DNA from: Amphiscolops sp. MND2022
Taxonomy: Eukaryota
DNA length: 64,000 bases
NCBI GenBank assembly: GCA_964187785.1
Contig: OZ076409.1
Location: forward strand, 11,720,001-11,784,000
Direction: 5' to 3'
Position numbers and translations under genes: made by a program. Positions 1 through 51,688 of the stretch are shown here, piece after piece (the stretch's first letter is position 1; each line of letters begins with the position of its first letter). The notes beneath the pieces were generated by a model. The model was not told where the DNA came from. It did not search any database and saw only the letters and a program-made list of their open reading frames with translations.

Positions 1-886
1 TGCAGAAAATTTTTCATTACGAAAAATTCGAGATTCCAATCTTTCCCTACTTTCTGCCAATGTTGACCTACAAGAATCAAATCAAAGAGCGGCTTTATGT
101 CAACGATTTCCAAGATACCCCAGAAGTGCAAAAGTGTTTGCTTTAATATGCCAACTTTTTCTTTATATGAACTCTGGGCTATTTTGGATGATGATGAAGA
201 ATTGTAAATTACAATTAGTACTAAGTGAACCAAAATTGACGAAATGCATAAAAATTTTCGTGTTCTCAAATTTTCAAATATTGCCAACAAACCTTTCAAA
301 AACAACTTTGAACGCAGATGTAAATCATTCGGATTTGCTACTTCTCTCGGAAGAGAAAAAGAAAGTTTTCACACTTTTGAAGTTAGACAGAAATGACTGG
401 TAAAAACGTTTAGACAATTTTTGATGGTTCTAACCATCTTAAGCTGGAGATGTAATATGAGCTTCACTCAAAATAATTGACAGAAAAAAAAGATTTTCAG
501 TGCCTTGTTCACAAACAATACTATATTGAAGACGCAAAAATTAGGGCGTTCCGTTTTTTTGGTTAACCTGGTACATATCAGGTAACACTGCTGAACATTA
601 TGAAAAGTACCTGCCGAAGCAGAAAATGAGAGAGTAATTAGTTCTCAGTTTGTGACGTTCCAGTTCAACACGCAAATTCAACAAGCATTGCTGCCGTTCT
701 CCAATTCATCAGAAAATCCAAGAAGAAGAAGAAGAAGAATTTATTTATTTGGAAACTCATACCAAATGTCAAGGAACAAATTAGTATGTATTCCAAAAAG
801 GACAGGAAAAGAGCTTTTCAGCTCATCTAGTCCCTGCCCTACCAAAAACAATTCTTTCGTTTCCAGCTGATCTTATTTCCTAGCAA

Positions 887-7720: not shown

Positions 7721-8412
7721 GAAGACCGAAATGAAAACTACTTCATGAAACCTTTTTTTGCAAAACACCGACAGTGCCGACGAAAGCCAAGAGGCGATCT
7801 TTTGCACCTTTGCACTCATCCAGCTTGGGTCATTTCACAAGACGCCCGCTAAGCAGCGGGCAACTTTTCCGCCCACTCGTTTTATAAAAAAAAACAATGC
7901 GAAAGCTAGGCTCGACGTCCCTAGCTAAGTGTAAACATCAGAAAAACTCGAATAAAAAACAGAATATTCAGTTTTTTACTGTCAAACAAAGTCTCATGGT
8001 GCCGAAAAACCCAAAAGAAGACCCTCTAAAATTGCAAAACCCCTTTTCGGAGCCAAAAAAAGGAAGTGAAGGACGTACCCTTTGACAAAATGATTTTCTT
8101 TTGAAAAAGTCTCACAATACCGATAAAACCGTAGACTTTTTCTGCATGTTTTGAGAAAACTCTCATCAACCCCACAGGGCGAACAATAACCAAAGAGGTC
8201 ACCCTTAATGCTTGGAAAACAGTTTTCCTCAACAAATCCTCCAAAACTAGAAATTGAGTGAAAAATTGTCTTCGAAAACTTGCATAGTGCCGAACAACTT
8301 GGGGGGGGGATTCTGTGTTCTTGCAAAGCACCGTGATTCTGCTTACAAATTGTAAAGAGGCTTCTGAAACGAAAACGGTAAAAATTTCCCAGATTTCCAA
8401 AAAGCCCAAAGG

Positions 8413-8841
8413 TGTTACTGACCTCGCATAAGGGATGAATTCGTCGTAGAAGTCGTGGGGACAGTGGCCATAAAATGATTGGTCAGGAAATGCCCGAAAA
8501 CACTGACTAAGATTAGCAAAAGGTTGAGACCAGTAAAATAACTGATATTATATAAAGTATATTTCTTATATAAGAATATATAGAAAAAGAGGAGGGGTAA
8601 CACAGAGGGGACGTTTCGAAATATATTTACCTGAGGAATTGCTTTCCTCTTTTACTTTTCTTTTCTTGAATTTCGTTTCTATAACTTGCAAAGGCGCAAA
8701 GATTAATTTTCGAATAATTTCATTCAGGAGAACTTGCAAAGAGCAAATACGAGTTAAACAACAATTGAAAAACTACTCAAAAGATTTCACGTATGAATCA
8801 CAATCAAAGAAATTCATCGATCGAAATGTTGAGTCAAAACA
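8413..8841 (-). repeat. 3' LTR of BEL/Pao element
   Basis: 429 bp with roughly 20 differences from 15268-15696 by eye. Preceded on the minus strand by PPT-like CGGGGTCGGAATA (8842-8854). Confidence 0.95.
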
Positions 8842-8909
8842 TATTCCGACCCCGAAAAGGGTTTGGATGAAAGTTGATATCACTATTCAGGTGAAATTAA
8901 GGCGAAGTT

Positions 8910-11900
8910 TCAAGTTTTGTTTGCGATGTCGACAGGGATTTTTGACAACTTCACGACTGGTCTGTGAATGTAGCCATAGGTTGTTTTGAGTCTGCAAGAT
9001 CGCACGACTCCATCCGCCCCCGGAAAAACTTTGTCAACTCTTGCCATCGGCCATAACCCACGTGGTGTAAAATCTTCTAGTACCCAAACCAAGTTGCCAG
9101 GCTGCAAATTTTGAATTGGAGTGGACCATTTGCCACGCTTGAGGAGAGTAGGCATGTATTCTTTTAGAAAACGATTGCAAAACTGATCAGAAATCTGTTG
9201 TGCTTGCTTCCAACTGCTGGAGATAGTAATTGACTTATCCAAGAAAATGCCGGGTGGAAAAGTTGGCGATGGACGGCCCAGCAGGAAATTGTTTGGTGTG
9301 ATTGGTTCCACGTCTCGGAAATCGCTGGATACTTGAGTAAGAGGTCGACCATTCATCATAGCAGCAACCTCGCACACAAACGTCGAGAGGGTGTCATTTG
9401 TCAAAGTTCGAGAACCAATTACACGGTAAAAGGCATTCTTGAACACCTTTACCAAACACTCCAAACAACCACTAAAATGAGGCGATGATGGGGGGATAAA
9501 GCGCCAATCCAAATGGAGTAGTAACAAGGCGTCGCGAAAGGAATTGTCCGTCGAAGTTTCTCAATGCCATCTTTCAATTCTTTACTAGCTTTGATGAAAG
9601 TTGTCGCATTGTCAGAGTAGATTGGTGGATTTCCACGCAAAGAAACGAAACGACGTATTGCCATGAGGGTTGTCTCAGTATTAAGATCAGCACAAGCTTC
9701 GATATGAACAGCTTTTGTGACAAGGCAAGTAAATAGCAAGCAATGTCGTCTCTCGAATTGACCATTGTCTTTGATTGGAAACGGACCAACGAAATCGAGT
9801 CCTGATGTAAGAAATGGAAAGTGGTTCGCAGAAGGTAAGCGACAATCAGGTAGATTAGCCCTGATCGGATAGTCAACGTGCTGGTTTATCCTTCTGCAAG
9901 GAATACAATGATGGATGATGGCCTTGAGTGCAGACCGACAACGCAGAACCCAAAACTGTTCTTGAACAATGCTACGAGACTGTTCGAGACTAGCATGGGA
10001 GTTGCTTTTGTGTATATGGAGGAGAAAGAGTTTTACTGCCGGATGTTTCGAATCAAGAATGATTGGGTAACGAGCCACAAGCAGATATTTAGCTTCGGAA
10101 AGCCTGCCACGAGAGCGAAGAAGACCTTGACGATCAAGAAATGGAGAGAGCGATGATATTCGTGAGTTAGACGCCGGAAGTTTTTGATTCCTAGAGCGTT
10201 GGTTTGTTCCGGAAACGAAGTTCGTTGAGTCTCCAATAAGATCCAACTGAACGCTTTCATAAGGTGAACAACACCCAGTCTATCGTTGATGCGACGGTGT
10301 TTGTCCAACAATGAATAACAGAATGCCATGGTTTTGAGGAGACGAGTCCATGTCTAAAATTTTGAAAAGATACGATTGCGTCAATTGGGTGCAGAGGGAA
10401 GCAAGAATTTGGACATTCGGGTGCGATGTTTGGTCTTTCTGGCCAAGTCTCTTGGTTTTTCAGAAGGAAATCGGGTTCTTTGAGCCATCGTGATTCGGAT
10501 GTAAAATTTAAAACCGGTATTCCTCTAGTACCATCGTCGGCCGGATTCAAGTCTGTGGGAACGTAACGCTACTGCGACACAGTCGAAGTTGAGAGAATGA
10601 TGGGTATACAGTTGTCTATGAAAATTTAGTGTCCGCTCTCGGATGAGTTGATCCAAGATAGAACTGTAGTGCTGTCTGTCCAATATACAATTGTGTCGAA
10701 AGAAAAGTTTTGTTCTTCTTTCATGAATTGAGCCAGTTTAGCTCCGTTCGTTGCAGCCAAAAGTTCGAGATTGCGGTGGTCATTCTCTTGATTGGTGCTA
10801 CTCGAGCTTTTCCTAGAATGAAACTGAGACTCACGGATTTGTCGGAGGAAACTGTACGAAGAAATACAACATTGGCTATTGCTTTTTCAGAAGCATCGTT
10901 AAAAACGAGTAATTCTTTATGAATTGGTTGTTTGGAAGCTTCGAAATAATGTCGCTTGATGTGAACTGTCGAAAGGTTCGCTACAACTTCGAAAACATTT
11001 TTCAACTCAGGATGAGCTTGAAGCGCGATTGGACAATCCCAATGCTGGTTATCCTTCCAAATTTGTTGAAGAGAGGTTCGAACGCGAATTTGAATAGGTG
11101 ACGAACTACCAAAAGGGTCGAAAAATGAAGAAACGTACTTCAGTAGAGTTCTTTGGGTTAGCTTTTTTGGAGTGTCTTGAAAATTGGTAGGTTGCAAAAG
11201 ATAGCAATCGTTAATCGGATTCCATTTCACACCTAATACTCTGTCAAAATCTTTCTTGTTTGTATTGACTGGTGCTGAAATCGACCTGTCGGACTCCGGA
11301 ATGGACTGATTGAATTCAAGATTGTTGTACATCCATTTCGCTAAATTGAAACCACCGGTTGCTAAAACTGTTTGGAGGATTGTGCGCAAATTCTTTGCTT
11401 CTTCGAGGGTATCAGTCGACACATAAAGATAGTCCATGTAGATGTGACGAGCGACCAAACTTGGAGCGTCAGGAGAGGCAGTTTTGTTGTCCTCGGCGCA
11501 TTGTCGAACGGGCGTAGCAAGCAGCACAGGGTGATTCTGTGGCACCAAAAATATGGCGATTGTACTCATGAACTTTGTTACGCCATAAATATCGTAAGAA
11601 GCGTCTATCTGAAGGTGGCACCGAAACTTGCATGAACATTGCTTCAATGTCAGCGGATATGGCAACACATTGTTCGCGAAAGCGCATAATCAAACCAGTA
11701 AGGTTACACAACAAGTCAGGTCCTTCCAGAAGACTAGAATTCAGCGAAGTACCTTGATAAACTGATGATGCATTGGTTACTCTTCGAATATTACCAGGTT
11801 TTTTTTACATTGGTTACAGGATAGTGTGGAAGGTACCCAGCGTTTTCTCGATTCGCTTCGGAGTCAGGTACAACAGACACGTATCCCTTCTCAATGTCGG

Positions 11901-14290
11901 TCGCAATGGACGCTTCGTAAAGAGAACCTAGTTAAGGTTTTCGTGCCAACTTGATTTCAAGTCACGATAGCTGTTTTTGAGCTACCCATTTGTTGTTAGG
12001 CAGAGAGACATGCTTCTTCCAAAGGAGGCCAATTTCATAGTGACCGTCAACAAGTTTGGTAGTTTTCTTCAAGATGGAGAGAGCTTGCTGATCTTCACCA
12101 GACAGACTCTTTTTGCTACTAGTGATGCCAGAGCAATCAATGTGCATCCACTCTTGAACTTGCTGGAAGAGAGCTTCTTGTCGACATCGAAGATTTGTAA
12201 CGTTTGTGGCAGATGTTGTCAGAAGTGTCGAACGACCGGCAATTGTCCAACCAAGTTTTATCGACATAGCACAAGGTGTGTTGGGTGGCCCTCGAATCAC
12301 AGTACGACTATGGATGAGGTCGAATTGATCTGACCCGATGAAAAGATCGACAGTCGATTGTTTTAGGTACGGAAATGGGACGTGTTGCAGGTGAGGGTAT
12401 TGTTGGCACAATGAATTGATGGGCGCTGAATCAAATGTTGGGAGGTTCAAGATAGGCACCACCAAAACATTGCACAATGGCATTGCCGTTGCAGCTTTGT
12501 AAGGAGCAATTGTCAAGTCGAATGATATAGCAGCAACTGTTGATGTAGTGTTGACGCCTTCAAGAAGAATAGGGGACGACTCTGGTAAGTGACCGACTAA
12601 ATGTTCGGCAATTTTCTTGGTGATCAAAGACACTGAGCTGCCTGTGTCTAGAAGAGCGAACACGTCTGCAGTTTTACCACCCGATGAAACAGTCACAGGC
12701 ACAATTGGACGGAGACGGGGTTTAGCAGCCGCGAAGTGGACAGTGTGGAAGATTGAATTTGATTTTGACCTTGTCTGTCAATATGGAGCAAGGTGTGGTG
12801 TTTTTTCATACATCCAGGATGCTGACAAACTTTTGTTGACTTGCAATCATTGAAGGTATGGCCCTTCAGACAGTTGAAGCACAAGTGGTACTTCTTAGCG
12901 TAATTTTTGCGGTCTATTGGAGAAAATGCTTTGAAATGCTCGCAGCTCCCCAAGTAGGCACAACCTTTCTTCTCCGGACATAAACTAGGTTGAGAAGACA
13001 GTTTGACGAACGGCGTATTGGAATTTTGGCCTTGAGCTCGCGCATTTGTCGATGAGGTGGAACGCTTGTTGTGATTAGTGTCAGAGAAAGGAATAAAGCT
13101 GTCACGACAAGCTGTAGCGAAGTTTTGAAGCCAAGGAGCAAAATTTCTGAGCGACGGGTCTTTGATGTTTTGCGAAAGCACGTGGCGATTCCAATTTAGC
13201 CTAACATCGGACGGCAGTTTCGAAAGTGCACTTGTAAGATTGACGGTGGAGTGAATGTCTTGGAGAAAATTTAATTGAGTGAAGGTATCGACTAGAGAAG
13301 AGATGAAATTCGCATTGTTCGTAATGGAGTTCGGATCATCAATTGATGGTTGCCTGAATGTTTGGAGACGTTGAAGAAATGACATCACAAACGATCAGGT
13401 TTGCCGTATGTTGACTTCAATCTAGATAGTGCATACTGGTACATCGCGGGATTACAACCATAACCTGCCATAAATGCTTTTGCTTCTCCAGAGACAAGAG
13501 TTTGTAAGTGGATGATCTTTTCCGCTTGCGAAATTGCAGCGCTGTCGATGGTAGCGGAAAAAAGACCAAACCGATCGCCCTGGAAAACAGGTGGTTGAAT
13601 TTTAGGCAAGGTGAGTCAACATTGCGGTGGCACAGTATCGGTATTGTCATGAAGGGCGTTGGTTGTGCTGATGGACGCTGGATCAATAGCATTTTCACGC
13701 GTAGATGTGTCGACCGATTGCGTTATACCGAAAAGATTAGTTTGAAGATTGTTCGACAATGGCATATTGGGCTCAGATGTGGTTGATGAAAATGAAACGG
13801 TATTGGTTAATGGAGGTACAGCAGAAGAGTCGTCTCCGTGGGGATGATGCGAAGACGATGAAGAAGGAAGGTCAGAAATTGCAGCAGAGTTACTACCGCT
13901 ACAAGAGGACTTTTTGCTTCTAGTCACAGATACCTTGAAGCGACGAATGTCGAGTTTGATAGATGTCAATTTGTTGGCATGAGAAGCGAAGTCTGTGGTT
14001 GAGTTGTGAAGGGCTAAAGATTTCGTCAATCGAACAAGCTCAGCTTCAGCAACTGTTAATTCCGACGTAACGGAACTAATATCATAAAAATCTGTGTAGT
14101 TAGTCAGCAAATCATTGCCAAAAGATATCAAACTTGCAAGTTCTTCCTGCTGTAACAAAATGAGGCTGTGGATAGTTTTGATTTCAGAAGGCTCAGAGTC
14201 GACAGTTTGAGTGTCGGCCGAGACGTCAACAATGGCATCGTCACCGTTAGACGGCTCACGATTGCGTAAATTATAAGTTTTGGGAGGCAT
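8910..14290 (-). pseudogene. BEL/Pao gag-pol polyprotein broken by multiple frameshifts and stops
   Basis: ATG 14290 (MPPKTYNLR). Gag segment PKIQPPVFQGD..EKIIHLQTLV; Cys/His boxes CFNCLKGHTFNDC..CQHPGCMKKHHTLLH; protease ALLDTGS; RT ADIEAMF, FGATESP, YMD(Y); RNase H VFNDASEKA, NPADDGTRG; integrase H..H..CIPC, GLDFVGP, SDNAT, PITPNNFL. Confidence 0.93.
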
Positions 14291-14424
14291 TGCGAAGCAG
14301 CTGAAAAATTTCGATGGAAACGAAAGATGTTTCTTTTTCGGGAAGATGTTACGAACGACTAATCTCACCCTGGTCGACCCGTGCGAGTTAACGCACTTTG
14401 AGTGTCACAAGGATCAAAAAATCG

Positions 14425-15020
14425 TTAGCAACAGATGTTATTGATGAGCCTGTCTCGCTTGTTTTTACGCTGTTTCTTCAGGAGTGAAACAATGTTTTGT
14501 TGATGCTTGACTACAATGCGAAGTAAATGGGAATCCAAGGCAAGCGAAGGGTGAACACTACTCAACGAACGTATGACAGAAGGAGTCCTTCGTTTTCGTT
14601 GAGACAACAATTTATTTTGAGCGTCTAAAATAAGGGTTCCAGATGAAAAAAGTTCTTTCAGGATGTTTGGACTTCCGCTCCGTTGAACGTAAACAAGGGC
14701 GCGGATGCGATTACGGATTTCAAAGAGCAGTTGAATTAACTCTTCAGGTGACAAAATGTGTAATTGTTGCTCTGATGCTTCGAGAGACTGTTATTAATGA
14801 CGTCGTGCCAAATGACTATGTTTTGTTTGCGTGCTAGTGGGCCACGACGAAGAAGATTTTGCAAAACTTTGAAACGATAATTCGAAGAATTGTTGAAACT
14901 GAGTCCTCGTATTGCAAAGGATCTTTTGGAGAGTGAATAACGAAAGGAATGAGGGATGGACGTTGACTTTAGGATATTATCGAGACAGCTGGCTCCGATG
15001 ATAAACATAATGAAAGACAT
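14425..15020 (-). pseudogene. Extra ORF upstream of gag (~198 aa after repairing one frameshift near 14755), SGNH/GDSL-hydrolase-fold-like
   Basis: ORFs 14736-15020 and 14425-14754 join with a 1-nt repair. Ordered motifs FIIGAS, AIRGLS, IVIWHDVINN..SPEEL, SVHPS match SGNH blocks I, II, III and V by eye. Confidence 0.6.
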
Positions 15021-15247
15021 AAAAGATGATAATAACGTAACAAATGCGAAACATAACGAAACGAATTAAAAAGTAGATGAAACAAAAAATTATACTCCTC
15101 AAAGTTGTTCGAGTATATCAAATAAAACAAAAGCGACGGATGAACAGGAGACGTAACGAAGATTGGAACAACTAGAAAGAAGAATCCCAGAGACGAAACG
15201 AATTGGAACCAACGTGGTAACAGACACGAAGAATGGGATCGACTTTA

Positions 15248-15261
15248 CACGTTGGGCGCCA
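15248..15261 (-). promoter_or_regulatory. Primer-binding site complementary to the tRNA-Lys 3' end
   Basis: Minus strand TGGCGCCCAACGTG, 6 nt inside the 5' LTR. Identical to the first 14 nt of the known tRNA-Lys1,2 PBS TGGCGCCCAACGTGGGGC. Confidence 0.85.
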
Positions 15262-15267
15262 AAATTA

Positions 15268-15696
15268 TGTTACTGACCTCGCATAAAGATGAATTCGTCG
15301 TAGAAGTCGTGGGGACAGTGGCCATAAAATGAGTGGTCAGGAAATATCCGGAAACACTGTCTAAGATTAGCAAAAGGTTGAGACCAGTAAAATAACTGAT
15401 ATTATAAAAAGTATATTTTTTATATAAGAGTTTATAGAAAAAGAGGAGGGGTAACACAGAGGGGACAGTTTCGAAATATATTTACCTGAGGAATTGCTTT
15501 CCTCTTTCTCTTTTCTTTTCTTGAATTTCGTTTCTATAACTTGCAAAGGCGCAAAGATTAATTTTCGAATAATTTCATTCGGGAGAACTTGCAATGAGCA
15601 AATACGAGTTAAACAACAATTGAAAAACTACTCAAAAGATTTCACGTATGAATCAGAATCAAAGAAATTCATCGATCAAAATGTTCAGTCACAACA
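15268..15696 (-). repeat. 5' LTR of BEL/Pao element
   Basis: Direct repeat of 8413-8841, adjacent to the PBS. Confidence 0.95.
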
Positions 15697-17207
15697 AAAG
15701 GGAACGTTTTCCTGTACGTTTGCAAGCATAAAAACAATTTCACTGTACCAAAAATATGAGAGGACTCCTTTGGACCTAAAAGGCTTTTTTGCATTTGTTC
15801 TTACAAAAAATGTTACTTACTTCGAATATAACGTCAAAGTTCAGATATGGTTTCTTTGTTTTTAGAATCCGAAATTTTAAAGTTATTAAATTATATCCGA
15901 AGAAAAGGGCGTTTTACTAAGAAGGAAACGGAGGTTCCCAAATTTTGACGTTATATCCGATGTAAATTGCGCTTCACTTTTTGCACGCTTTGATCTTTAA
16001 CTGGGGCGGTGAGTTGAGGCGTTCTCGTCTTGTGGGTTAAATTGCGGCTGTTTTTTCGAAGACTGTTGACACTAGCGCAAAGAAACTTACGTCCCTGATG
16101 TAACTATTTGCATACTAATACTAGCGATGGTGATATCGCACTTCATCTTTTCTTGTCAGGTGAGATTTCAATATGCGCTTTCGATATAACGCTCATATCG
16201 TCCAGCCGAAACGTCCGAAGTTTACCACGTTTTCATCAGTATCTCGACAATCAATGATCACACTGTCTAGTTTCAGAACATTTTGTTTCTTTGCTAAAAG
16301 TAGCAAGCCGGAACGGCCAAAGTCGTCGTTATACCTAAGGCTCGAAAAGCGCAAACTTTTTAAAAGCGCAGTGCTCAGGACGTTTTTCAAGGAAAACTCG
16401 CAAAAAAGTTCGAAACACCCAAAAGGTGCATTTAGTGCTCACAAAACGCGTCAGAGATTCGGATATAGCGTGCTGAGACAAATGCAAGCGCTTTTTTCGA
16501 TCCTACGGCTCCTCCTCAGTAAAACGCAAATTACTTCGGATTTAACGTCCAAAGTTCGGATATAGCGTGCGGACGTACTACCTACTGGGCCGGTGACTAA
16601 GATATCCACATACCTAAATGGAAAGGTAATAAAGTGGAGATTTGGCAGAATTTGAAAAAAACGCTTCATAGATGTGGATTTTCCTTCCCCTACACAATAA
16701 ATTGTGGTGGTGGAAAATAAAAACTAAAATTCAACTGTTTCTTACGGTACCCTTGAATGTATTTCAGATTTTGGGCTAATTTTTTTTCATTTTTGAAGTT
16801 ACATTTTCCCGAAAAATCACAGAAAGCCCAAAAAGTCTACAAATGGTGAACAACCCTAAGATCTCGCGTAACTTTTCAAACTTCAAAAAAATCCGGTATT
16901 GGATTTTACAGCACGAACTCCTGTTCTAACATCACACACACTAACCGTGCGTGATTTCCCATATTGCGTACTTGAGACATTAACGTGTGAAAATGACGTG
17001 ATCGAGACGGTGAAGAAAGGGAAAGATTTTCAGTTCTAAATGAACTAGTGGCAACTGAAGTGTGTTTCTACAAGGGGTTTCCGTACAGTCTCTCAGAATT
17101 TTCCTTGTTTTGTAAAAAACATTAGCCTCGCACGCATGAAAAACTCCGAGCTGATTCAGCTAAGCACGTTACTGATTTTGCGATGTGTGCCTCGCATGAC
17201 AAGAAAA

Positions 17208-17739: not shown

Positions 17740-19572
17740 CGAACTCCATAATTTCATTTTTCAAAAGAATTATCTAATATTATTCAACTTGTGTGAGGAA
17801 AATTATTCAAACAATCAACTTTAGAGTTGATTTTTTGCAATCTGGATATTCTTCTTTCGGAATTGGAAAAGTTAAGGAAAAAATTCTTCGACTTTTGACA
17901 CGCGGTTTGACATTCGACAAAGTATCTTATTCAACAGTTTCTCCATTCGAAAATTTCCGCTCTTGCCAAGTCAAATTATTCAGCCGCTGAAAATTTGCTG
18001 ACAAAAGTGACATGAGGAAACTAAAAAGTCAAACTGATTTTTATCGGAGAAAGCAAAGTGCCAACTGAATTTGCGAATGGTTCGCTCAAGGTCGTGTGTT
18101 TTCAATATATCAATGACATATATCAATGACTTCTATGCATTGTTTGCGTCCATTGATTGTTGAGATTGTCATGTTACAGTTTGAAACGTTATATACATTT
18201 TGAAAGTTGTTGGGTAAATCATTCGAAAAAAGTTTGAATGACATGAAAGAGCCCCGACGTCACAAAATTGCTGCAAATTGCTGACGCAAACGAAATTTCA
18301 TTAATTGTCATCTTTGACGTAAGCAACGCCTGAACGTCTCATTCTTCCTTGTTACAGATTATAATAAAAAACGCCCTTTGAAGGAATTTTCGAGTCAATA
18401 TCTTTCTACTTGCCGACTTCTCTAATTAGCTATCTCGATCAGAAATTGATGCTTCATCGTAATGGAATAATTTATTAATTTGCGTAGAATACTTTAATTC
18501 GAAACAATTAGAAAAAGTTGATCAAAAATTTCCCCAAGATTCTATCCCTAGGATTAATTCATAAGTAATTCATAACCCTAGAGGGGAAAAAGAGGAAATA
18601 TTTTTAGTTCTAACGGAAATAGTGGAAGTTGCATTGTAATCCTGGTTTTCCCATGCAGTCTCCCAGAATTTCCATATTTTGTAAAAAAAACTAGCCTCGC
18701 AGGCATGATAAACCTCCCAGTAGTTTCAACTAGTGATGTTACCTCGCATGACAAAAGAAACAACACGATTTTCATAATATCATATTTCAAAAGAATTATC
18801 TAATATATTCAACTTGTGTGTGCGAAATTATTCATATAATCAACTTTAGAGTTGATTTTTTGCAATCTGGATATTCTTCTTTCGGAATTGGAAAAGTTAA
18901 GGAAAAAATTCTTCGACTTTTGACACGCGGTTTGACATTCGACAAAGTATCTTATTCAACAGTTTCTCCATTCGAAAATTTCCGCTCTTGCCAAGTCAAA
19001 TTATTCAGCCGCTGAAAATTTGCTTACAAAAGTGACATGAGGAAACTAAAAAGTCAAACTGATTTTTATCGGAGAAAGCAAAGTGCCAACTGAATTTGCG
19101 AATGGTTCGCTCAAGGTCGTGTGTTTTCAATATATCAATGACATATATCAATGACTTCTATGCATTGTTTGCGTCCATTGATTGTTGAGATATTCATGTT
19201 ACAGTTTGAAACGTTATATACATTTTGAAAGTTGTTGGGTAAATCATTCGAAAAAAGTTTGAATGACATGAAAGAGACCCGACGTCACAAAATTGCTGCA
19301 AATTGCTGACGCAAACGAAATTTCATTAATTGTCATCTTTGACGTAAGCAACGCTTGAACGTCTCAATCTCCCTTGTTACAGATGATGGTAAAAAACGCC
19401 CTTTGAAGGAATTTTCAAGTCAATATCTTTCTACTTGCCGACTTCTCTAATTAGCTATCGCGATCAGTAATTGATGCTTCATCGCAATGGAATAATTTTT
19501 AAATTTGCGTAGAATACTTTAATTCGAAACGATTAGAAAAAGTCAATCGAAATTTTTCCCAAGACTATCCCT
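17740..19572. repeat. Recent tandem duplication (~0.8 kb near-identical units 17740-18550 and 18765-19572)
   Basis: Long identical stretches; ORFs 17793-17990 and 18818-19015 are near-identical translations. Confidence 0.92.
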
Positions 19573-22170: not shown

Positions 22171-22282
22171 AATATGGTACTATAGCTTGCTATGGGGAGA
22201 TAGTATCCGAAAGGGCGCCGGCTTAGAAAAGCAGACTGCTGATTCGGCGCCTACCCCGCGGAATTGGATTTTCACTTCACTT

Positions 22283-22521
22283 TCCGATCTTTATGGATGC
22301 ATTCGGCACTGTTTTTGAATTTGTTCCACACTTCAAGAGAGAATTCGTTTCTCCCACTAGCAAGCTATGATACTAGCTAGCAGCCAAGTGGTCTAATTCA
22401 AGTTAAATTAGACCACTTGGCTGCTAGCTAGTATCATAGCTTGCTAGTGGGAGGAATGAACTCTCTTCTGAAGTGTGGAACAAAATCAAAAACAGTGCCG
22501 AATGCATCCAAAAAGCTCGGA
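22283..22521. repeat. Long inverted repeat (7-nt loop 22399-22405)
   Basis: Inner ~48 bp of the arms perfectly complementary; outer ~65 bp imperfect. Confidence 0.93.
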
Positions 22522-23346
22522 ACGTTTTTCTATCTGAGAACATCAACAAAACCAAAACGCCTAAAGTCGGTGCCTCACTTAATGTTCAAAAAGTGCAGTT
22601 TTCAAAATATGTTCAATGAGTTTTGAAAGGAAATCTTGAAGTGTGTGTCTCACAAGAGTGTCAAAAAACCTACAATCAGCATTTCGTGTTTAAAAAACGT
22701 TTTTCTCTAACTGAAAACATCAGAAAAGGAAATGTTCGAAAAACTTGGAGGACGAACTTTCAGCCCTATATAGTTTCAAACATACGGTTAAACTGAAAAA
22801 CTTAAACCTCGTAACCTATTGGCCTGTTACGATGCCCTTTAGAACTTAGACCTAAAGTCTGTGGGAAACGGACCATTCAGTGTGACACTCAGTGGTATAG
22901 AAAAATTGAGAAAAAAATAATAACTCTAATATTCGGATCTATTTTCTCATAACGTACACTGACTAAAAGCACCAAAATGAAGACCACTTCATGAAACCAT
23001 TTTTTTTTCAAAAAGCCGACAGGGCCCAAGGAAACCAAGAGGTGACCCTTTACACCTTTGCACTCATACAGTTTGGTTCATCAAAAAAAACTAAAATCCA
23101 AGTACGGTACCTCTGGAAATTGAGGGTAACTTTTTTCAAGAATTGGATTAACAATTTTTTCCCGAAAAGTGTTAGAAAGCCCAAAAGACTACAAATGGTG
23201 AACCCTAAGGTCTCGTCTAGTTTTGCAAACTTCAAAAAATCCGGCATTGGATTCGACGTCACGAACGCCTGCTCTAATATCACGCACACTAACCGTGGGT
23301 GATTACCCATATTGCGTACTTGAGAAATTGACGTGTGAAAACCACG

Positions 23347-48946: not shown

Positions 48947-49524
48947 GGTTGGGCGACAATTCGTCCCAAGCGACAATTCGTCCCAAGCGACAATTCGTCC
49001 CAAGCGACAATTCGTCCCAAATTCCAAAAAGCGACAATTCGTCCCAAGCGTCAATTCGTCCCATTTTGAAAAGGCGGCAATTCGTCCCATTTGTAAAAAG
49101 CGACAATTCGTCCCAAATTGTTTAATTGATCAGCTAATTACCAACCTTTTGAAGGTTGAAACGAAAGAAATAATCAAACCAACTACAAATGAATTCATTC
49201 AACCATTTGAGAATAATTAGAAAATGTTGCATTTTAACGTACTAGTCGTGGAATGTTAAAATTAATTGTTGGCACCTGCCTCTAATTGTAATCTTTCCGG
49301 ATTCATTATTACAAAGGTGTTTATTGGCAATTAAATTGGGGACAAATTGCAGCTTTTAATAATTGGGACGAATTGTCGCCTTTTCAAAATGGGACGAATT
49401 GTCGCTTGGGACGAATTGTCGCTTGGGACGAATTGTCGCTTTTTGGAATTTGGGACGAATTGTCGCTTGGGACGAATTGTCGCTTGGGACGAATTGTCGC
49501 TTGGGACGAATTGTCGCTTTACGC
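48947..49524. mobile_element. Foldback (Mutator-like) element whose TIRs are arrays of 17-bp GCGACAATTCGTCCCAA
   Basis: About 8 units left and 9 inverted units right; TSD (C)AGTTATGG at 48938-48946 and 49524-49532. Confidence 0.9.
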
Positions 49525-49840
49525 AGTTATGGCCATTGCGCATTCTTAGCGGATAAGTCAACTCAAGTATCACAAATTCACACATAGAAAATTTTGTACT
49601 GATCGGATCAGTCTGATCCTTCGCTAATTTTAGAAACAGAACCCTTGAAAGTTTGACAATTGAAGCTGAAATAGGAAAAAAATCAAAGTTTCATTAAATA
49701 TTTTCAACCATTCAACTGTGAAGAATAAGGCGCTCCGGAATGTCAGACGTCACCGTTTCAACCCTAATTACCCTAGCGGTACTTTAAAGCACCCTCCTTT
49801 CTTTCGTTTTGCCAGTAGCCCATATCCTCTAGCACGGTTT

Positions 49841-50316: not shown

Positions 50317-51295
50317 TCCAATTCACTGGCACCTAGACTGATTTGAATGGCACAGGCATTAGTGAAAATGTCTTCCAACATGAAGAAATTTGTTTCGCAA
50401 CAAATGGTTATACTTTTCCAACATTTCGTTTTCGACGAGACCCAGATATCTCAAAAATCCTTGACCTCATAGAGAAAAGCAACATCATACCCTTCCACAA
50501 CAAGTCCTGGTGCAACAAATCCCAATAAAATCCTGTTGTTACTACAAGCCTCCGAACCTTTGAAACGCACTGTAATTCTTTCCTCTGCTACTACTCTAGC
50601 TCTTAAACCCTAATTGACCTGGGCGTTTTTGCAAATTTTCAAAAAATCTGATCAAAAATTTTCAATCATTAATATCTCCACAACTACGCATACCAGAGGA
50701 ATGCCTAGTAGGACATTACTCGAAGTTTGAGTCATATCGATTAATAAGAGAATTATGGTACAATCAAGAGGCCATCATTGGTCAACAAAATGAAGCTTCT
50801 CTTCAAAAATCTTTCGTCTCGGAAGTCCCTAGATTTTGAACTCACTAGACCTAGCAAGTGACCATAGCTTTGAAGGTGCCGGTCATTGTTGATTTAGGCT
50901 CCTTAGGACTCACTGTCAGAAAAGATTGACATTTGACATGAGATGGTTCACAAACAGTACCGCTACATTTGCATTAATGTAATATGTTTACGTCATAATC
51001 AACATTCCACTATCTGTCAACTGATAAAAGGTGCCGCATTTGATGATAAAAAAGATCAAACCATTTTCCGAATCATGGAACTTCCGATTGTTGTAAGTAT
51101 AATCTTGTGTGATTATTGCCATGAGGAGACAGTATGTATAGGTGCAAAGACGGCTACACCCTATTGTTTAATATGGATTATAGCCATTTATAGAAACGAT
51201 TTGATTACTGGGTCGACAAAGTTGGTAGCTGAGTCAAACAAATAATTTCACATGTTCCGAGAAAAAAAATTCAGGATTTTTCAATCAGAGTTGTA

Positions 51296-51554
51296 ATTTA
51301 AATTTCTGTGCTTACTGTGTGGGGGGATTAACAGAAAAGACCCAAATTTCATTTTAGACTTCAAACTTCTATGAAACTGTACAAATCATGAGCGTGAAAA
51401 ACTGTCCCAAAGCGGTTTTCTCTTCAAGAGAAAACCGCTTTGGGACAGTTTTTCACGCTCATGATTTGTACAGTTTCATAGAAGTTTGAAGTCTAAAATG
51501 AAATTTGGGTCTTTTCTGTTAATCCCCCCACACAGTAAGCACAGAAATTTAAAT
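51296..51554. repeat. Perfect palindrome, 129-bp arms, 1-nt spacer at 51425
   Basis: Base-by-base reverse complement around ...TTTTCTCTT-C-AAGAGAAAA... Confidence 0.95.
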
Positions 51555-51688
51555 CTCAAAAATCTACCAGTTACCAAAATTATATTTGGAATTATATATT
51601 GGAATTATATTTGGATATATCCAAAGTTTGGATATATCCAAATATAATTCCAATTATAATTTTGGTAACTGGTAGATTTTTGAGATTT
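51551..51688. repeat. Second adjacent palindrome, 1-nt spacer at 51626
   Basis: ...GATATATCCAAA-G-TTTGGATATATC...; the left arm has an extra ~13-bp TTGGAATTATAT duplication. Confidence 0.92.

Follow-up and report, generated by a model that had tools for sequence, protein, structure and literature searches.

Among LTR retrotransposons, the rotifer Vesta elements carry a GDSL/SGNH ORF3 located 3′ of pol (PMC5408684). Like the gene described here, it is a separate SGNH reading frame of an LTR retrotransposon with no transmembrane or coiled-coil part, and its function is putative, membrane help having been proposed (PMC5408684). Vesta is, however, not a BEL/Pao element, and its ORF3 is about 1.3 kb long, was detected by HHpred and has the S, G, N and H residues intact (PMC5408684), whereas the gene in our window (the whole 64-kb stretch of DNA analyzed) lies 5′ of gag, encodes 194 aa without the block V Asp and gave no SGNH match at the sequence level. 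The initial annotation of this locus had correctly named LINEs and tyrosine-recombinase elements as earlier SGNH cases but had missed this published LTR case (PMC5408684).

Outside the LTR elements, the available part of PMC3905857 describes SGNH ORF1p esterases in ZfL2-1, other CR1/L2, RTEX and Penelope-like elements, and reports that the ZfL2-1 esterase (pI 10.8) is a slow enzyme whose binding to acidic lipids and liposomes depends on charge. As at our locus, this SGNH domain occupies the 5′-terminal part of a retroelement and is strongly basic with an Arg-rich motif, and the His that starts block III, H191 in ZfL2-1, would be equivalent to His68 here (PMC3905857, in part). According to the same portion of that source, ZfL2-1 differs in being a non-LTR element with the esterase inside a Gag-like ORF1p that combines the complete Ser-His-Asp triad with a coiled coil. 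The window gene is instead a unit of its own that precedes a true Gag, with no sign of the N-terminal coiled coil (100 of 118 family members start at the domain itself).

Extra coding capacity ahead of gag is familiar from plants, where the Ty3/gypsy element Ogre carries an extra 5′ ORF and badna- and tungroviruses employ leaky scanning through AUG-poor upstream ORFs. Retrosat2, another plant Ty3/gypsy element, has an extra 5′ ORF0 (PMC3485330, accessible part). These systems share with our locus an extra ORF before gag or an AUG-free path, but their proteins are unrelated, their hosts are plants and they belong to other families. Other classes of mobile element also contain SGNH cargo of putative function, as is the case here: as far as the accessible text of each report goes, Ngaro tyrosine-recombinase elements have an SGNH ORF after the recombinase (PMC9210276), and an SGNH gene has been captured by a Helitron, an animal element of another class (PMC4021074). 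For BEL/Pao elements themselves, the published descriptions give gag and pol, in some cases env, and a leader that is non-coding (PMC8742986; PMC3118150, in part). A BEL/Pao element with an SGNH esterase 5′ of gag was not found in the literature by phrase search, a weak instrument that covered few subscription papers and no Repbase reports or supplements. Within the literature searched, SGNH cargo, 5′ accessory ORFs and AUG-free scanning are known parts; their combination is new, and so is a family with a rebuilt active site that Pfam does not detect.

The BEL/Pao element and its additional gene

The window contains a decayed BEL/Pao LTR retrotransposon of 7.3 kb on the minus strand, with the following features.

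15268..15696, minus strand: 5′ LTR, 429 bp with TG...CA ends, 95.3% identical to the other LTR over 430 nt (blastn)
8413..8841, minus strand: 3′ LTR, 429 bp
8408..8412, no strand: left target-site duplication AAAGG, flank sequence
15697..15701, no strand: right target-site duplication AAAGG, flank sequence (5-bp duplication)
15248..15261, minus strand: primer-binding-site-like 14-mer TGGCGCCCAACGTG, 6 nt past the LTR end
8910..14290, minus strand: BEL/Pao gag-pol in at least nine open stretches, with Gag, protease, RT/RH, integrase and DUF5641

The 14-mer at 15248-15261 presumably resembles a tRNA-Lys primer site; no tRNA gene was found in the window. In the ICTV profile the primers of Belpaoviridae are tRNA-Arg or tRNA-Gly (PMC8742986), unlike the site of this element, which looks tRNA-Lys-type. 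The described LTR lengths of 0.2-1.2 kb and Gag-PR-RT-RH-IN order of Belpaoviridae are shared by the window element, as are PF05380, PF03564 and PF18701 (PMC8742986; PMC3118150, in part). Pfam domains on gag-pol follow the order PF03564, PF13650, PF05380, PF17921, PF18701, which is the BEL/Pao order PR-RT-RH-IN; PF05380 (E 8e-29) and PF18701 (E 1e-23) were both over the cut-off, with PF03564 (E 2e-4), PF13650 and PF17921 just under theirs. Gag-pol is split into many open stretches, and the window copy of the element is dead. An exact database match was absent for nine of the ten window ORFs. The polypurine tract ahead of the 3′ LTR is weak (8842-8866, minus strand).

Between the primer-binding-like site and the gag ATG, two minus-strand frames are open 5′ of gag: 14736-15065, carrying FIIGAS, AIRGLS and IVIWHDVINN, and 14425-14790, carrying SPEEL, SSVHPS and KKQRKNKR. 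Using as reference P0032, a natural sister protein of 194 aa, two pieces of one gene were located in them.

14757..15008, minus strand: N-terminal piece of the predicted SGNH-fold gene, P0032 residues 1-84 (tblastn, 98%), with its ATG at 15008
14446..14754, minus strand: C-terminal piece of the predicted SGNH-fold gene, P0032 residues 86-188 (tblastn, 95%), in the other frame

The N-terminal piece holds the block I Ser7, the block II Gly35 and the block III WHDV..N, and its frame stops at 14736. The C-terminal piece holds His153 and the basic tail in a frame open over 14425-14790, the last few residues of which diverge from the sisters from about 14446. As separate queries, the two pieces retrieved 8 and 13 database proteins. 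Among 275 proteins, 28 sisters shared 85% identity or more with P0032, which is itself counted; they are the ones listed from a cluster of 38 members. Residues 80-92 are read through in one frame in all 28 of these listed sisters, and 14 of them cover residues 1-188 or more, full length being 193-194 aa; the twelve sisters of 194 aa are 94-100% alike. The intact ORF expected in sister copies therefore exists, and the frame break near 14755 is a feature of the window copy. The sister search favors copies with long frames, so it shows unbroken copies to be common, but not how common. The initial annotation had fused the two frames into about 198 aa by a 1-nt repair near 14755; its frames and motifs stand, but its length and start do not, as the sisters have 194 aa counted from the ATG that corresponds to 15008; in place of the in-frame ATG at 15020, sisters P0006, P0038 and P0214 have Thr. 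No second copy of the gene was found in the 64-kb window.

Several sister proteins extend beyond the gene into its flanks. Those in other frames or with earlier starts reach the LTR end and primer-binding leader (P0039 to 15286, P0214 to 15244, P0038 to 15227), and others reach the spacer 3′ of the gene (P0004 and P0010 to 14391; P0009, 77% identical, to 14368), which the Gag sister P0279 crosses from 14431 into Gag, overlapping the spacer-reaching esterase sisters. In addition, 7 of 14 listed Gag sisters, not counting the window's own (29 in the Gag cluster), lie on contigs exactly as long as an esterase sister's contig, compared to 0 of 14 when the same Gag sisters were matched by length to 65 contigs of other subfamilies, a pairing that gives neither order nor distance. 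On these overlapping proteins and shared contigs, the constant place of the gene between LTR/primer-binding site and gag, as first proposed, held in this subfamily. It is very improbable that the gene is an unrelated nested insertion or passive cargo outside the design of the BEL element. The broken window copy, a genomic context known for only a minority of the 889 family clusters described below and the occurrence of the distant member L001 in another context would be in keeping with such an origin, but both flanks are common to sisters, the spacer is kept in a 77%-identical relative, Gag sisters share contigs with the gene and full-length frames persist at 25-45% identity. The nested-insertion reading is thus largely refuted for this subfamily, and the additional gene is, with high probability, an integral part of the BEL/Pao element.

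Some further features were observed in the window and among the sisters. The Gag reading of P0279 leaps from window position 12717, where Gag ends, to 9275, at the end of integrase, a jump that points to a copy with an internal deletion; the contig of P0279 is as long as that of the unbroken esterase P0021. A dispersed repeat family with a GGGAACGGCCCAAGTCGGCGCC core occurs in both orientations in many copies within 6897-62672, and an inverted tandem array of 17-nt units and two long hairpins with perfectly paired arms of 134 and 123 nt were recorded at 48951-49536, 51291-51559 and 22279-22525; the dispersed GGGAACGGCCCAAGTCGGCGCC repeats, the array and the hairpins are likely non-autonomous DNA elements. 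A direct duplication of 300 nt, 98% identical and 1025 nt apart, occupies 17781-18080 and 18806-19105.

Family, predicted fold and active site

A 13-sequence profile retrieved 889 representatives of 50%-identity clusters at E<=1e-3 (589 at 1e-10 and 153 at 1e-30), and the extra gene is therefore not a product of chance. The best 150 matches were all 105-284 aa long. Of 155 aligned members, 118 span residues 1-175 to 90% or more (37 partials were left out), with a median length of 202 and 24-77% identity to P0032 (median 33%). In 100 of these 118 the ORF begins no more than three residues from the Met of the first strand, so that neither a coiled coil nor a signal precedes the domain, and a weak search for fused forms of 498-2000 aa found none. 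The family is large, stand-alone and without annotation. Pfam SGNH/GDSL gave no match for 18 proteins at E<=1, and no SGNH family was among the 25 listed of 45 families matched by the 118 members at E<=0.1; sub-threshold Pfam hits of the two pieces and their relatives to KaiA_N and TPR_ZFYVE26 were rejected as unrelated. PDB sequence searches with the two profiles yielded three matches, all at E>0.1, and none, respectively, hhalign against the single E. coli TesA sequence was not significant (probability 0.15), and Atlas provided no usable match to the family. Relatives accounted for 0 of 26 pattern matches in viral contigs, and none was found in phages. In a metagenome scan, 4 of 31 matches were relatives, all on contigs of 1-2 kb that showed no similarity to the window gag-pol. 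The distant member L001 (1067-1660) is followed by AT-rich sequence with no recognizable gag in the next 410 nt; the family thus also occurs in other contexts.

As the motifs come without a Pfam SGNH match, the fold call rests on a structure model. The AlphaFold model of P0032, built with 118 sequences, had a pLDDT of 95.2 and a pTM of 0.89 and shows five strands alternating with helices. In a Foldseek search against PDB, ranks 1-6 were GDSL/SGNH chains, GDSL lipases and PAF acetylhydrolase coming first, with 3p94 as the best match (E 4e-4, TM 0.53). VIA-align on 48,161 chains returned OatA 6vjp (Z 10.8, rmsd 3.2, 139 aligned) and 3p94 (Z 10.8, rmsd 3.5, 151 aligned), with 34 chains at Z>=8 and the best 50 listed nearly all SGNH-type; Oskar 5a4a was at rank 32 (Z 8.1, rmsd 3.9, 143 aligned). 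These values amount to a moderate structural match (TM about 0.5, rmsd 3.2-4 Å). A BFVD fold search returned SGNH-labelled phage proteins, none of them at E<=0.001, and the ZfL2-1 esterase 4c1b, which is domain-swapped, was absent from the best 50 matches listed for Foldseek and VIA-align. Model residues 1..175 align with 4..179 of TesA 1jrl, and 1..173 with 4..177 of 6lfc, placing Ser7 on Ser10 and His153 on His157, the catalytic residues of TesA. On 1vjg, 1z8h and 4h08, Ser7 likewise coincides with the nucleophile position of block I, and the register of His153 is off by 1-3; on Oskar, Ser7 coincides with Asp429. All of these registers are range ends taken gap-free, without side-chain geometry. 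On this modeling, the product of the gene very probably has an SGNH hydrolase fold. The fold originally suggested for the repaired protein is thus supported by the predicted structure of a sister and its Foldseek and VIA-align matches to SGNH hydrolases.

Across the 118 members, Ser7 is kept in 105, Gly35 in 106, Asn73 in 111 and His153 in 108, with Ser7 and His153 together in 97 and all four SGNH positions in 89. After thinning to 44 members less than 40% identical, the S, G, N and H positions are kept in 38, 39, 42 and 39. His68 (112/118), Asp69 (109/118), an acid at 159 (104/118), His78 (102/118), Tyr107 (110/118) and Arg110 (105/118) are also conserved. The block V Asp three residues before the His occurs in 0 of 108, with Glu at that place in seven. 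Gly35 lies three residues past strand E30-32, its equivalence to block II being one of position. The residue before Ser7 is Ala and not Asp or Asn (GAS in 74, AAS in 16). Block III reads WHDV[IL][NS]N with GxND absent and places Asp-Val-Ile where other SGNH proteins carry small residues. Position 72 is Ser in 11 of 12 full-length sisters and Asn in 89/118, which together with Asn73 gives two candidate oxyanion Asn residues. P0032 has a pI of 11.5, with a pI of at least 9.5 in 108 of the 118 members; the tails have a median net charge of +11, and no membrane-spanning stretch was found in the family proteins.

Loss of the block V acid is compatible with catalysis in other SGNH proteins. The accessible part of PMC9487903 describes CE2 and the Streptomyces scabies esterase SsEst as active without the block V Asp, a backbone carbonyl replacing the acid (PMC9487903, PMC10792757, each in part). 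These enzymes share with the present family the fold, predicted here, and the absent block V acid, with no sequence kinship shown (PMC9487903, in part). The Oskar OSK domain also has the fold predicted here, but, as the available portion of PMC10792757 states, it is without the whole triad and has lost the catalytic Ser and His, unlike this family. Since Ser and His are kept here and only the Asp is gone, as in the active dyad enzymes, a Ser-His enzyme is favored over an Oskar-like dead fold, and judging from conservation and model the protein is probably catalytically active, a putative Ser-His esterase with a replaced acid. The initial annotation had considered the protein possibly non-catalytic like Oskar, which the loss of the block V Asp would suit but which is less supported given that Ser7 and His153 are kept together in 97/118 and Oskar lost both. 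A fold that only binds RNA or lipid, its Ser and His being structural or ligand-binding, is accordingly unlikely, though it carries some weight. It would account for the Asp being present in 0/108, the Ala ahead of Ser, the remodeled block III, the very basic protein and the presence of Oskar 5a4a (Z 8.1) among the structural matches. It accords less well with a nucleophile and base retained at about 33% median identity, with enzymes scoring 2-3 Z over Oskar and with the activity of the Ser-His dyads of CE2 and SsEst.

The AUG-free stretch ahead of gag

Two further features concern the translation of the gene and of gag.

14291..15007, minus strand: AUG-free stretch, 0 sense ATG from the esterase ATG to the gag ATG
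14977..15054, minus strand: out-of-frame upstream ORF of 25 codons, running across the esterase start to a stop within the gene

The gag ATG given at 14290 by the initial annotation was borne out by sister Gag proteins, which begin MPPK there; the AUG-free stretch had been missed. The gap from 15008 to 14290 covers 718 nt without a sense ATG, the next longest gap being 326 nt (74 ATG in the 6426-nt internal region), and sense ATG density in gag and pol is about 13 per kb. Of all 64 trinucleotides, only ATG is missing from 14293-15005. In synonymous shuffles with the protein fixed, about two out-of-frame ATGs were expected and zero were seen (P 0.05-0.07), so that the out-of-frame deficit is borderline by itself; six gag-pol control stretches showed no ATG deficit in such shuffles. 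Internal Met makes up 0.28% of residues in the family versus 0.97% in the gag-pol of the element (Fisher p 1e-4, kinship ignored), and 2.75% in TesA. No internal Met is present in 80 of 118 members, where the gag-pol rate would predict 22, and in 29 of 44 members of the thinned set. In L002 a stretch of 435 nt is free of ATG, and L001, L003 and L004 have 12, 4 and 2 ATGs in the gene; these ATGs, together with the context of L001, show that not every member avoids AUG or sits ahead of gag.

With no AUG over 0.7 kb from the esterase start to gag, both proteins are likely made from one RNA, and the most economical explanation, probably the right one, is scanning-through translation of esterase and Gag, either by leaky scanning or by re-initiation. 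The upstream ORF at 14977-15054 might reduce the amount of esterase made and supply ribosomes for re-initiation at gag. A less probable arrangement, to which we give perhaps a minor share, keeps the gene and its fold but has Gag made from an RNA that is spliced or internally started, with composition accounting for the missing AUGs. The borderline synonymous-only test (P 0.05-0.07) leaves room for it, as does a pyrimidine-rich stretch ...TTTTTCAG that ends at 14301, 11 nt ahead of the gag ATG, with candidate donor-like GT motifs upstream. An AUG-free gap over twice as long as the next in the element and family-wide Met avoidance argue against it, and Pol would still require translation of the genomic RNA or of the same spliced form. 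On the minus strand, a donor-like GTGAGA at 14368 and the acceptor-like TTTTTCAG to 14301 delimit a candidate 68-nt intron before the gag ATG.

Proposed role and implications

Taken together, we propose a conserved accessory gene with an SGNH fold that encodes a slow Ser-His esterase docking on acidic membranes or RNA and made from one RNA with Gag, an account to which we assign a probability of about 0.58. Ser7 would be the nucleophile and His153 the base, the role of the block V Asp being taken by a backbone carbonyl or by a conserved acid (Asp69, Glu/Asp159). Positive charge and the Lys/Arg tail would bring the esterase to acidic phospholipids and the element RNA, as for the esterase of ZfL2-1, and the protein here may then help Gag-RNA particles to assemble on, or leave, a membrane. 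Ribosomes that skip the esterase AUG, or that finish the short upstream ORF, would meet no AUG before gag, making the RNA bicistronic. This putative membrane and RNA role is taken over from the ZfL2-1 LINE esterase, and by this analogy a part in membrane and particle processes is put forward tentatively, at somewhat short of even odds.

It is also conceivable, but quite unlikely, that the host supplies the enzyme's substrate, a protein, glycan or signaling lipid from which it would remove acetyl or acyl groups to blunt host silencing, with no part in particle assembly. This would agree with a small stand-alone protein that is not fused to Gag (none over 284 aa among the best 150, and no long form in a weak search), with top folds that include acetyl-transfer and acetyl-esterase enzymes, and with members in other contexts (L001). 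A place that couples translation to Gag and a basic tail suit a ribonucleoprotein role better, and the available part of PMC3905857 reports no histone-peptide deacetylase activity for the ZfL2-1 esterase. Beyond the proposed membrane-docking esterase, a bolder and unlikely reading is that the small SGNH enzymes of a large unrecognized family combine Ser-His with an acid relocated to block III or past block V, a new way of arranging catalysis, and that animal retroelements use them as a portable first gene. In BEL/Pao such an enzyme would be co-translated with Gag via the AUG-free corridor and provide matrix-domain-like membrane targeting, possibly taking env-less elements across membranes.

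SGNH esterases of putative function have been acquired by retroelements of several classes, and the BEL/Pao case adds a fourth LTR-type arrangement, stand-alone and 5′ of gag, in elements with a replication cycle that is poorly understood. A family of hundreds of clusters, with an active site lacking the usual acid, escapes Pfam. Because the protein is small, single-domain and well modeled, the membrane action of transposon esterases in particle assembly becomes directly testable, as does the bicistronic translation of an animal LTR element.
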